A DNA stretch of 54,270 nt, counting the filler, from Circinaria calcarea (lineage: Eukaryota): the NCBI GenBank assembly GCA_051942165.1. It is 2 parts of 2 records of this genome, joined end to end, with 100 filler letters (N's around TTAATTAATTAA, not from the genome) between each part and the next. Parts side by side here need not be neighbours in the genome. Positions count along the whole stretch, not along the records: positions 1 to 27,150 come from JAVECS010000070.1; 1 more part is not named here. One strand, 5' to 3'. A program made the translations under genes and the position numbers. The notes beneath the pieces are model-generated. The model did no database searches. It was not told where the DNA came from and saw nothing but the letters and a program-made list of their open reading frames with translations. Position 1 is the first letter of the stretch; every line of letters begins with the position of its first letter. Shown here one piece after another: positions 11,015-13,329 of the stretch.

Positions 11015-11540
11015 ATGCGTCTTTTGAATGTCCTCCTCTCGGCCATGGCCTTTGGCTTAGCCCTTGCGGCAGCTGTACCGAATGCTCGACCGATGGGTGT
11101 GCAGGAGTTTCGCGCTCGTGTTCGCCTCGAAGTGATTCCTTATACAAGTGAGCGTCTTCCTGCTCGTCAGCGTGTTCTCCCTGTGCTGACTGTCTCGTCT
11201 CGAAGACATCAAACGCATTCAGAAAGCGCTTGAGGAAGCCGGTCAAATCCTTCAGACTCTCGGGAATCAAGTAGAAGATTGTAAAGATTGGCCGGGTGAG
11301 TGCAATTCCTATTGTCTTTGATTAATAACTCTCACAATGGCATTCGGAACCTCTGCGGGCTTGACACTTCAAGATTTGTCAACGGAAAGCAGAGAATTTA
11401 TTCCGGCTTAGTATTATCCAATCAGATTTATTGCCCTGAGTGTACACCAAGCTAATTGACTTATAGAACAATGTTATCATGATGCCGAGTGCTGTAGTGG
11501 GGCCTGTATTGATAATACGTACTGCGCCCAGCCAGATTAG
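11015..11540 (+). CDS. Secreted conotoxin-like inhibitor-cystine-knot (knottin) peptide precursor, 98 aa; exons 11015-11147, 11206-11295, 11467-11540
   Basis: Both introns have GTGAG donors, CTGAC or CTAAT branch sites and AG acceptors. The spliced product is MRLLNVLLSAMAFGLALAAAVPNARPMGVQEFRARVRLEVIPYTNIKRIQKALEEAGQILQTLGNQVEDCKDWPEQCYHDAECCSGACIDNTYCAQPD*, with framework C-x6-C-x5-CC-x3-C-x5-C. The paralog at 12854 supports the exon structure. Confidence 0.85.
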
Positions 11541-12229
11541 CGTTAGATTCAGGGAAAGGGAAAGCAATCGAAAGAAGTAAAGGGCTTGTCAAAATCTTCC
11601 GAATATTTTCCTTACAGAAGGCATGCGGAGCTAGGTAGTAAGTTGTGATTGAGTACTACGGCTATGATCGCTGTCATGGCAAGGCAGGAACAGAGACAAT
11701 AGGCCTTATAATAAACCTTGGGGCTTAGATAGAAAGTTACAAATTCTACATCATTCTTGAATTGCGGATGTACTCGCGTGACACTCGTCACTTTTTGCTC
11801 AAGGGGGGTTCTTAGTGAGTAGTGATCCGAGAACATGTTCCGCGGTTTAGGAGCCATAGTCTGCACATTTACAGCAGTTGCGTTATTGTTTGGTTTGCCA
11901 TTGAAGCCGCAACATGCAAAGGTCTCCTAGTACTACTGGTTATGCGTGGGATCCCCTGTGAGCAGTACAAGTACTGCGGGCTATGAAGTGACCGCGTAAT
12001 TGGGATGGCACCATGTCGCTTACCAATGTATCGCCATTGGCAGTATCTTTACCGTCAGTCATGGCGTTGTCATATCCGCCGTGGGGATCTCGACCTACGG
12101 TTTTATAACGCACAGGAAGCATGAGTGGGCCTTTAAGGACATCAAGATCACAAGTGATCTGCAAGAGATATTCGATATGTGCAATCAAGCGGAGCTCGTA
12201 TATGCAACCCAGGCCAGGTCTCCAAATCC

Positions 12230-12510
12230 TACAGCCGGTCCAGCGTACACCGAAGATGCACCTCGTACCATCGGGAGCAATTGAATCCGTTCTCGATCTC
12301 GGCTGCTGGAATCGGAATGTCTCCATCCCAGAGTTTCCGCGGGCAAAACGCTCGTCATCTCGACAGTTTGCCATAGTCCCAACCCATGCCGTCTGTTCGT
12401 CAGGTGGCCGAGAATCTGTATCCTGGGGTATACCCTCTCCAATATGCGTATGGGAGTACCGGAAAGCTTCGGTGCACGTTCGACCAGCTGCACTATTGGA
12501 GGCTTGGCTA
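12230..12510 (+). pseudogene. Possible degenerate SAM-dependent methyltransferase relic
   Basis: ESVLDLGC followed, after one extra base, by GIGM (motif I VLDLGCGxG). A downstream TFDQLH resembles motif II. There are several frameshifts and stops. Confidence 0.25.
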
Positions 12511-12853
12511 GGCTTCATTCTCTACTCAAGGTTTCTGCAGTACGCAAACGACTTGTTCATGGACCATGGTGTGACGTGGCTGTAGCCCATTCGTGCCGTC
12601 TCTGCATCATACAGCTGTAGGTCTGCATCGTCTTTTTTGGCACACCATTAATGTTCTTTCATGATGCACATGACGTTCTTTCTGGTATCTGTGTTGGACC
12701 TAGAGTATCAGTAGGATCTGCCTTTCCTCCAGCTTCCACCCCGCACGTTCAATCTTTGTCAGTAGCGTTGATCAGTCCTCATCAGCAGCCAGCTATCAAA
12801 ATCATATACACCCAAGATTCCTTCCAACCCCCCCCCATTCTCACCTTTGCAGT

Positions 12854-13329
12854 ATACGTCTTCTCAATCTTCTTCTCTCGGCCACGGCCTTCAGCTTCGC
12901 TGGCGCTGCCTCTCTTTCAAACCCTGAGCCAGCTAGAAAGGAGATCCAAGGCTGTGCTCATCTTGAAGTGGTTCCTGACACCAGTGAGCCGCCATTTTCC
13001 AATTCGCCAGCGTGCTTTTCCCCGTACTGATTATCTGGTTCAAATACATTGAGCGCATCCAGCTTGCGCTCAAAGAGGCTGGTAGAATCCTTCAAGTACT
13101 CAGGTATGGAGAGAATGACTGCAAAGAAGAGGGGGTTTAAGTGGTGTTCTTGATAATTTCAAATCATGCAGTCCCCCCAATTTCATTCTTCTTTTTCATT
13201 GTACAATGTTTTTCAGGCTAATATTTTTAAATAGCCGAGTGTGAAAAAAATAGCGGGTGCTGTAGTACATATTGTAGCTTGTATACGCCTTATGAAGGAA
13301 ATTGTTATCCTTTGGTAAAGTGTTTGTGA
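12854..13329 (+). pseudogene. Pseudogenised paralog of the knottin precursor; exons 12854-12983, 13046-13135, 13235-13329
   Basis: Reads (I)RLLNLLLSATAFSFAGAASLSNPEPARKEIQGCAHLEVVPDT / NIERIQLALKEAGRILQVLRYGENDCKEEG / AECEKNSGCCSTYCSLYTPYEGNCYPLVKCL*. The start is ATA instead of ATG, the intron-1 acceptor is AAT instead of AAG, and the intron-2 donor is TT instead of GT. Exon 2 is 90 nt, as in the intact copy. Confidence 0.85.

Follow-up and report, generated by a model that had tools for sequence, protein, structure and literature searches.

Locus and gene models

We analysed a stretch of 54,270 nucleotides of the Circinaria calcarea assembly GCA_051942165.1 (filler included; positions 1 to 27,150 come from JAVECS010000070.1), here called the window, in which two related copies of a short gene for a predicted cysteine-rich secreted protein lie one after the other on the + strand. 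Coordinates count along the whole window. A preliminary description of the pair had proposed a conserved prepro region joined to hypervariable toxin loops, in the manner of venom genes.

Copy 1 (11015-11540) is an intact gene of three exons with a canonical ATG, two GT..AG introns that carry branch-like motifs, both in phase 1, and a product of 98 amino acids. Exon 1 (11015..11147) holds the ATG, the predicted signal peptide MRLLNVLLSAMAFGLALAAA, a variable N-terminal part of the pro region (the pro N-part) and the start of a conserved core, LEVIPYT; it ends in phase 1 and is followed by a GTGAGC donor. Intron 1 (11148..11205, 58 nt) reads GTGAGC...CTGAC...AG, where CTGAC is branch-like. Exon 2 (11206..11295) encodes the amphipathic helix IKRIQKALEEAGQILQTL, a linker, the first Cys (in DCKDWP) and the sole dibasic site of the product, KR at residues 47-48. 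Intron 2 (11296..11466, 171 nt) reads GTGAGT...CTAAT...AG, with CTAAT branch-like, and exon 3 (11467..11540) encodes Cys II-VI (C-x5-CC-x3-C-x5-C) and ends in the stop TAG.

The product thus runs from a signal peptide through about 49 amino acids, including the conserved amphipathic helix, to an acidic six-Cys motif. Its N-terminus has the look of a typical signal (a basic residue, 18 hydrophobic residues, then AAA), with a top 10-residue Kyte-Doolittle window of 2.32. The Cys residues stand at 70, 77, 83, 84, 88 and 94, giving C-x6-C-x5-CC-x3-C-x5-C, and the last 29 residues, which hold all six, have a net charge of -5. The second phase-1 intron splits the presumed knot, leaving Cys I on exon 2 and the other five Cys on exon 3.

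On the minus strand a stop-free frame of 116 codons (window 10971-11321) lies over exon 1, intron 1 and exon 2 of copy 1; in copy 2 no antisense frame of at least 70 codons covers the same blocks.

Copy 2 and its lesions

The second copy consists of five blocks in the same order. The exon-1-like block (12854..12983) starts with ATA (12854-56) and not ATG, has one extra Cys, and keeps the GTGAGC donor; the frame is open from 12704 but has no in-frame upstream ATG. The intron-1-like block (12984..13045, 62 nt) keeps a branch-like CTGAT and ends in AT at 13044-45, where AG is expected. The exon-2-like block (13046..13135) is an open frame with the helix IERIQLALKEAGRILQVL and the motif DCKEEG, and after it stands TT (13136-37) instead of GT; use of the closest GT, one base upstream, would shift exon 3 out of frame. 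The intron-2-like block (13136..13234, 99 nt) keeps a branch-like CTAAT and its AG acceptor, and the exon-3-like block (13235..13329) encodes C-x5-CC-x3-C-x9-C and an extra C-terminal Cys before the stop TGA.

All three coding blocks are open in the homologous frames; of the splice signals, copy 2 preserves the exon 1 donor and, together with its branch motif, the exon 3 acceptor. One of the two extra Cys lies in the pro N-part and the other three residues before the end, so the total is 8 if the three blocks are read together and 7 if exon 2 is skipped. The preliminary description had taken these blocks for functional exons, overlooking the ATA start, the AT acceptor and the TT donor; what the DNA offers is homologous blocks only. 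Three lesions in expression signals, combined with about 100 stop-free codons, point to a recent inactivation, and copy 2 is probably an inactive or restructured copy, likely recently so. Exhaustive enumeration of GT..AG models gave 184,665 and 154,182 combinations and is uninformative without splice-site scoring.

Homology of the two copies

The 5′ blocks of the copies align far beyond chance. Against shuffled sequences the DNA alignment has z=23 for exon 1, z=10.6 for intron 1 (43 of 57 columns identical, a score reached in 0 of 300 shuffles) and z=14.6 for exon 2, and within the window the exon-2 peptide finds its counterpart by tblastn at E=2e-6. Intron positions and phases are kept. Beyond exon 2 alignment is at chance for intron 2 (z=-0.5) and exon 3 (z=-0.2), and the flanks are unalignable (intron 2 and flanks between -0.5 and 1.5). 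What exon 3 retains is the Cys scaffold: loop lengths 6, 5, 0 and 3 are common to both copies, and the window contains exactly two instances of the exon-3 Cys pattern, where 30 shuffles average 0.07 per window. No third copy was found in the window by tblastn or nhmmer, the latter returning exactly two.

On these points of sequence the preliminary description was accurate. The exon-2 peptides agree at 17 of 30 positions (16 of 29 full codons plus a shared split-codon N), the signal peptides share RLLNxLLSAxAF (13 of the 19 residues after the start are identical), and intron 1 is alignable as claimed. Exon 3 has in common just its Cys and the S of CCS, which make up the 5 identical codons (4 Cys and the S) among the first 13 Cys-anchored ones, and the last loop has 5 residues in copy 1 and 9 in copy 2. 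KR is present in copy 1 only, its place being taken by the residues ER in copy 2, and neither copy has a dibasic site directly before the knot. As a whole the earlier observation was largely right, although it made the prepro region out to be more uniform than it is and overlooked the lesions of copy 2.

Block-wise divergence and selection

We measured divergence between the two sequences block by block, as nonsynonymous differences per nonsynonymous site (pN) and, for the loops, also relative to the synonymous value (pN/pS); the loops offer only 9-13 alignable codons, and power is very low. For exons 1 and 2 together the Nei-Gojobori method gives dN 0.36 and dS 1.45, a ratio of 0.25 over 71 codons, which indicates that purifying selection acted on both copies during most of the time since they arose. 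The blocks differ widely among themselves. The signal block (13/19 residues identical, pN 0.20) and the 25-codon core, LEVxPxT plus the 18-residue helix (18/25, pN 0.18), are conserved, and the six residues DCK+3 are intermediate (3/6, pN 0.32). The pro N-part (3/16, pN 0.44), the linker before the knot (0/5, pN 0.58) and the non-Cys codons of exon 3, that is, the loops (1/9, pN 0.58, pS 0.64), are variable. Loop pN exceeds that of the core (0.58 vs 0.18, Fisher p=6e-4) and of the signal (0.58 vs 0.20, p=0.002) and does not differ from that of the pro N-part (Fisher p=0.42). Within the loops pN/pS is 0.91 for the 9 non-Cys codons and 0.79 for all 13 codons, with no difference between nonsynonymous and synonymous changes (Fisher p=1.0).

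Divergence is therefore a mosaic, in which the signal, the core helix and the Cys scaffold are constrained and the other segments change at about the neutral rate. The proposed conservation of the prepro region stands for the signal and core helix and fails for the pro N-part and linker, which are as variable as the loops. Of the proposed hypervariable loops under diversifying selection, the first half is borne out, in that the loops outpace core and signal, while the second is not, as pN/pS stays at 0.79-0.91 and does not pass 1. Diversifying selection on the knot loops is neither shown nor excluded, because a pN/pS of about 0.9 on only 9-13 codons is the neutral rate; relaxed constraint explains the loop divergence equally well, given that copy 2 lacks its start and splice signals. 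Divergence is not uniform across the exons, and dN/dS in exon 3 is not well below 1 (0.79-0.91), two outcomes that would have spoken against the preliminary description. An exon-3 omega above 1, as its positive claim would require, was not obtained in a comparison that has almost no power at two sequences and 9-13 codons.

Intron 1 differs at 14 of 57 positions (11148-11205 vs 12984-13045), against 18 of 37 third positions of identical-residue codons (Fisher p=0.025); at the 4-fold sites of the 5′ block 9 of 22 differ. The low divergence of intron 1 is odd but statistically borderline, and splice signals take up much of a 58-nt intron. Among its 14 differences, 9 are G>A or C>T in the direction from copy 1 to copy 2. 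Repeat-induced point mutation (RIP) was considered as a cause of the divergence and rejected: TpA/ApT of 0.68-0.78 is not RIP-like, and transitions to transversions stand at 53:35.

We also considered, and dropped, the idea that the 3′ half of the pair is older than the 5′ half. In simulated intron-2 pairs, 47% scored no better than the real pair at p=0.41 with 72 nt of deletions, and 15% did so at p=0.25. Unalignability of intron 2 is thus expected at the divergence of the 4-fold sites with the observed length difference, and needs no greater age.

Helix and processing

Within the first 18 residues of exon 2, hydrophobic side chains recur at positions 1, 4, 7/8, 11, 14/15 and 18. Copy 1 has a hydrophobic moment of 0.64, which 3 of 2000 shuffles attain, and copy 2 one of 0.55, attained by 63 of 2000. 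AlphaFold2, run on the 30-residue exon-2 piece as a single sequence, gives a helix at residues 2-26 with a predicted local distance difference test score (pLDDT) of 88.6; amphipathic peptides in isolation are readily modelled as helices. The conserved amphipathic pro-helix of the preliminary description agrees with both the moments and this single-sequence model.

Because KR is not kept in copy 2, Kex2-type cleavage there would not be a feature of the family. The two extra Cys of copy 2, one in the pro N-part and one near the C-terminus, are a hint that the N-terminal region might be retained on the knot.

Putative knot fold and search for relatives

Both copies fit the general knottin spacing C-X2-7-C-X3-10-C-X0-7-C-X1-17-C-X4-19-C, as quoted in PMC6889267, with loops of 6, 5, 0, 3 and 5 in copy 1 and 6, 5, 0, 3 and 9 in the blocks of copy 2. 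In a true inhibitor cystine knot the disulfides would join Cys I-IV, II-V and III-VI, the last of them passing through the ring. Against Pfam the 23-residue exon 3 of copy 1 (without Cys I) comes closest to Toxin_18 (E=0.012, 16.0 bits vs a cut-off of 24.3), Toxin_29 (E=0.028, 14.9 bits vs 25) and UPF0506 (E=0.029, 15.2 bits vs 23.2). The other five exon pieces match no knottin family at E<=10 and give chance matches only, to Med11 and YpzI. The nearest Atlas clusters of the copy 2 exon 3 are spider knottins, at 0.85, which we treat as a lead only; Toxin_12, cyclotide and omega-toxin clusters are neighbours at 0.82-0.85. Weak as they are, these profile and Atlas leads agree in pointing towards knottins. 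A sequence search of the PDB with exon 3 of copy 2 returned nothing at E<=10. With exon 3 of copy 1 it returned five rows at E<=10, namely three RecA constructs, a trypsin inhibitor (E 1.7) and Dickkopf-4 (E 6.8), all rejected as being at chance level.

Wider searches were negative as well. A word-index protein search gave 374 candidates for exon 1 (44 amino acids), none at E<=10, and 11 candidates but no match for the 73-residue read-through open reading frame (ORF). A HMMER profile of both exon-1 peptides found nothing at E<=0.001 among 1.84 billion representatives, and of 287 pattern matches in a metagenome scan with the exon-2 alignment 0 were confirmed. A synteny set comprised 80 of 113 confirmed fungal metagenome loci around relatives of the neighbouring NAPRTase gene (<=68% identity, 946 kb); no relative of the knot gene was found in it by tblastn (best E 0.14), by nhmmer or by a Cys regular expression (7 junk matches). 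With single exons of 29-73 residues as queries, distant relatives may have escaped detection, and the family rests on two sequences since no homologue was found. Short three-exon genes often lack annotation. A Histoplasma preprint (10.1101/2025.05.13.653811) makes the same point, that knottin genes are missed by annotation. In the literature searched, neither a fungal C-x6-C-x5-CC-x3-C family nor a knottin of a lichen fungus was described, and the lichen papers listed there nowhere use the word 'knottin'. The Sca protein of Penicillium (117 amino acids, 4 Cys) was set aside as unrelated.

Genomic setting

The window is eukaryotic in character: short GT..AG introns are present, and its housekeeping genes are those for NAPRTase, ALDH, Maf1, a ZIP transporter, NAD kinase and a syntaxin-like protein. 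From about 9200 to 15000, between the NAPRTase ORF (7728-8876) and the syntaxin-like gene (15231-16133), the DNA is gene-poor: its longer ORFs have no Pfam match, and apart from the knot pair no gene can be recognised. The spacer between the copies (11541..12853) likewise has no recognisable gene, ORFs without a Pfam match, and no third copy. Two runs of N, 44 each (window 27151-27194 and 27207-27250), were taken as gaps or masked stretches.

The NAPRTase ORF has 2708 relatives at E<=1e-30, the best named ones in the lichen-forming ascomycetes Pleopsidium flavum (71%) and Lasallia pustulata (70%), which places the window in a poorly sampled lineage of Pezizomycotina near lichen-forming fungi. 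As a control this search shows that the protein library does contain housekeeping genes of relatives. Two metagenome NAPRTase proteins, at 92% and 85% and possibly from close relatives, lie on contigs of 7 kb and 33 kb, and these contigs might hold an orthologous knot locus.

Comparison with known systems

In layout the closest parallel is the rust family AvrP4/MLP124266 (CPG5464; Melampsora). As PMC6889267 describes it, the N-terminal region of these proteins is conserved and has helical propensity, the C-terminal knot is variable, and the knot of MLP124266 was established by nuclear magnetic resonance. PMC4164029 reports positive selection in the AvrP4 family, citing Barrett 2009, Van der Merwe 2009 and Hacquard 2012. 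The features in common (PMC6889267, PMC4164029) are a secreted precursor of about 90-100 amino acids with a conserved signal peptide (here predicted), a C-terminal six-Cys stretch of about 30 residues (the knot fold being putative here), and multi-copy genes with fast-changing knot residues. In layout only, N-terminal conservation above C-terminal conservation is also shared, here as 18/25 in the core, with its helix, against 1/9 in the loops. Unlike our pair, with C-x6-C-x5-CC-x3-C-x5/9-C, the rust proteins have C-x4-C-x5-C-x4-C-x2-C-x5-C (from the Cys numbering in PMC6889267), and they are basidiomycete whereas the window is ascomycete. The exon-3 peptides of both copies retrieved no AvrP4/MLP124266 chain from the PDB at E<=10.

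The knottins termed Fungi1 (Cladosporium Avr9; Histoplasma Knot1-4) are likewise secreted fungal prepro-peptides, with a six-Cys knot, that are hard to annotate and lineage-specifically expanded. According to 10.1101/2025.05.13.653811, Histoplasma has 25 knottins whose propeptide is removed before or during secretion, and a Fungi1 gene consists of two exons, the second of which carries all six Cys, with loops of 3-4, 8, 3-6, 2 and 6-12. Here there are three exons and a phase-1 intron sets Cys I apart from Cys II-VI, and the Fungi1 loop spacing has 0 matches in six frames of the window. The tests of Fungi1 spacing and exon structure having failed, and no sequence tie between the pair and any family compared being detectable, we file it as a new sequence family.

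Animal inhibitor cystine knot (ICK) toxin precursors (conotoxin O-superfamily, spider Toxin_12) share the C-C-CC-C-C order with a vicinal CC, the signal-pro-knot layout and three exons, and they are the nearest sub-threshold profile and language-model neighbours. They differ from the present pair, which stands in a fungal genome and has an acidic knot (-5) and introns of 58-171 nt, not kilobases. In conotoxin genes, by the account in PMC10561478, the mature exon is about 3x more diverged than flanking non-coding DNA. No such excess over adjacent non-coding DNA appears here, where intron 2 and the flanks are as unalignable as exon 3, while a conserved signal sequence of the conotoxin type is present (13/19 identical, pN 0.20). 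The likeness to toxin precursors drawn in the preliminary description therefore survives in the signal, the conserved helix and the variable C-C-CC-C-C motif, but not in the excess divergence of conotoxins.

Beauveria bassiana has species-restricted secreted proteins with predicted spider-toxin-like knottin folds, as summarised in PMC12099005. Like ours they are ascomycete and lineage-restricted, with secretion here a prediction; they rest on whole-protein AlphaFold models, and the likeness is one of description. On sequence grounds the pair would be a new sequence family among known fungal secreted knottin-like peptides, with fold, secretion and expression all putative.

Interpretation

We favour, at slightly better than even confidence, the reading that this is a tandem pair of lineage-restricted fungal genes for small secreted knottin-like proteins, of which copy 2 has been inactivated or restructured. 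What the DNA shows directly are the gene models, the homology of the copies, the rates by block and the lesions; secretion, knot fold, processing and role would follow this scheme. The signal peptide would take the 98-residue precursor of copy 1 into the endoplasmic reticulum, where the six Cys of the C-terminal 29 residues may form three disulfides. The most constrained part is a core of 25-27 residues, LEVxPxT-N plus the 18-residue amphipathic helix, which might be retained as a functional module on the secreted protein, as in rust AvrP4/MLP124266, or might be a cleaved pro-segment, as in Histoplasma knottins. Purifying selection would act on the signal, core helix and Cys scaffold while the pro N-part, linker and loops drift about neutrally, and in copy 2 the ATG is gone, as are the splice sites on either side of exon 2. 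The role would presumably be extracellular binding or inhibition in interactions with other organisms.

Several results weigh against this reading. Three lesions without a stop in about 102 full codons of copy 2 are unusual for plain neutral decay, and we roughly estimate the joint probability of the lesion picture at about 0.03; in copy 2, exon 1 can be joined straight to exon 3 in frame and by canonical signals, so expression in another form is possible. With the single-exon pieces searched, all curated knottin profiles stayed below their own cut-offs. Exon 3 of copy 2 alone reached an AlphaFold2 pLDDT of 56, in models of single-exon pieces only, and the knot spans intron 2. Protein, metagenome and PDB searches gave no homologue, and the models of both copies are known from DNA alone.

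The same lesions could mean that copy 2 is a working gene of changed structure, with an upstream micro-exon or a non-AUG start and with exon 2 skipped. An exon-2-skipping form is possible because both lost splice sites are exactly those flanking exon 2 and the exon 1-exon 3 join is canonical and in frame; it would give 76-79 amino acids without a stop, from an intact GTGAGC donor and an intact exon 3 acceptor with its CTAAT. All three blocks are still open, and a pyrimidine-rich acceptor (...tttgcag) lies one base before the ATA. A solution that supplies an upstream ATG by GT..AG splicing nevertheless carries no weight, since 87% of 300 shuffled upstream sequences offer one. The candidate donor, GTTCTT, departs strongly from the consensus usual in fungi, the product would have an odd 7 Cys where the three-block reading gives 8, and the exon-2 block is still 16/29 identical to that of copy 1. 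We consider a working, restructured copy 2 rather unlikely.

Venom-style positive selection on the mature loops, with the signal and pro exons held constant as in conotoxins, would account for the excess of loop pN over core and signal (0.58 vs 0.18, p=6e-4, and 0.20, p=0.002) and for a Cys scaffold and loop lengths 1-4 that are kept while residues change, and the AvrP4 family, with the positive selection reported in PMC4164029, is a fungal precedent. We judge it unlikely. Loop pN/pS is 0.79-0.91 and not above 1, loop pN being indistinguishable from loop pS (Fisher p=1.0), and variability is just as high in the pro N-part (pN 0.44) and the linker (0.58). The non-coding neighbours, intron 2 and the flanks, have diverged no less, expression signals are missing from copy 2, and the comparison covers two sequences and 9-13 codons only. 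The contrast of exon 3 could instead be one of age, if the duplication is old and gene conversion or a partial re-duplication later made exon 1, intron 1 and exon 2, the 5′ block, alike again. Alignability does end exactly at the end of exon 2, with z near 0 for intron 2, exon 3 and the flanks, and intron 1 differs less than third positions (14/57 vs 18/37, Fisher p=0.025). A recent conversion does not fit, however, because synonymous sites within the block are themselves strongly diverged (4-fold 9/22; pS 0.64 by Nei-Gojobori, NG86), and the simulations leave intron 2 no better aligned than observed in 47% (p=0.41) or 15% (p=0.25) of runs; we hold this history to be very doubtful. A last reading, in which intergenic DNA happens to offer open frames and Cys patterns without any real gene, would agree with the lack of a homologue or annotation match, but it is extremely improbable given dN/dS of 0.25 over 71 codons, conserved intron positions and phases, canonical signals in copy 1, and a Cys motif found 2 times against 0.07 expected.

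Significance

The reading of a lineage-restricted pair with copy 2 inactivated or restructured leaves these as fairly ordinary fast-evolving secreted-peptide genes, in which venom-style selection is possible but unproven; the evolutionary case consists of two sequences, of which copy 2 is probably dead. A bolder proposal, which we regard as decidedly unlikely, is that lichen-related ascomycetes independently evolved a toxin-precursor family of the animal type, with loops selected for different targets and copy 2 as a snapshot of turnover. If true, it would be an independent toxin-type family with a C-C-CC-C-C knot split by an intron, three exons and a constrained amphipathic pro-helix; the loops might be aimed at ion channels or proteases of symbionts, grazers or competitors, and copy 2 would record birth-and-death turnover or exon loss.

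Avr9, AvrP4 and the Histoplasma Knot proteins belong to the small secreted knottins that are coming to be recognised as effectors of fungi. Most such genes are overlooked by gene callers and motif finders that assume a single exon for all Cys, and the present locus, with its intron-split knot and spacing of the animal-toxin type, would escape them. If expressed, the pair would represent a new family of sequences, from a fungal lineage that is poorly sampled, and a clean case for the role of a conserved helix that precedes the knot.

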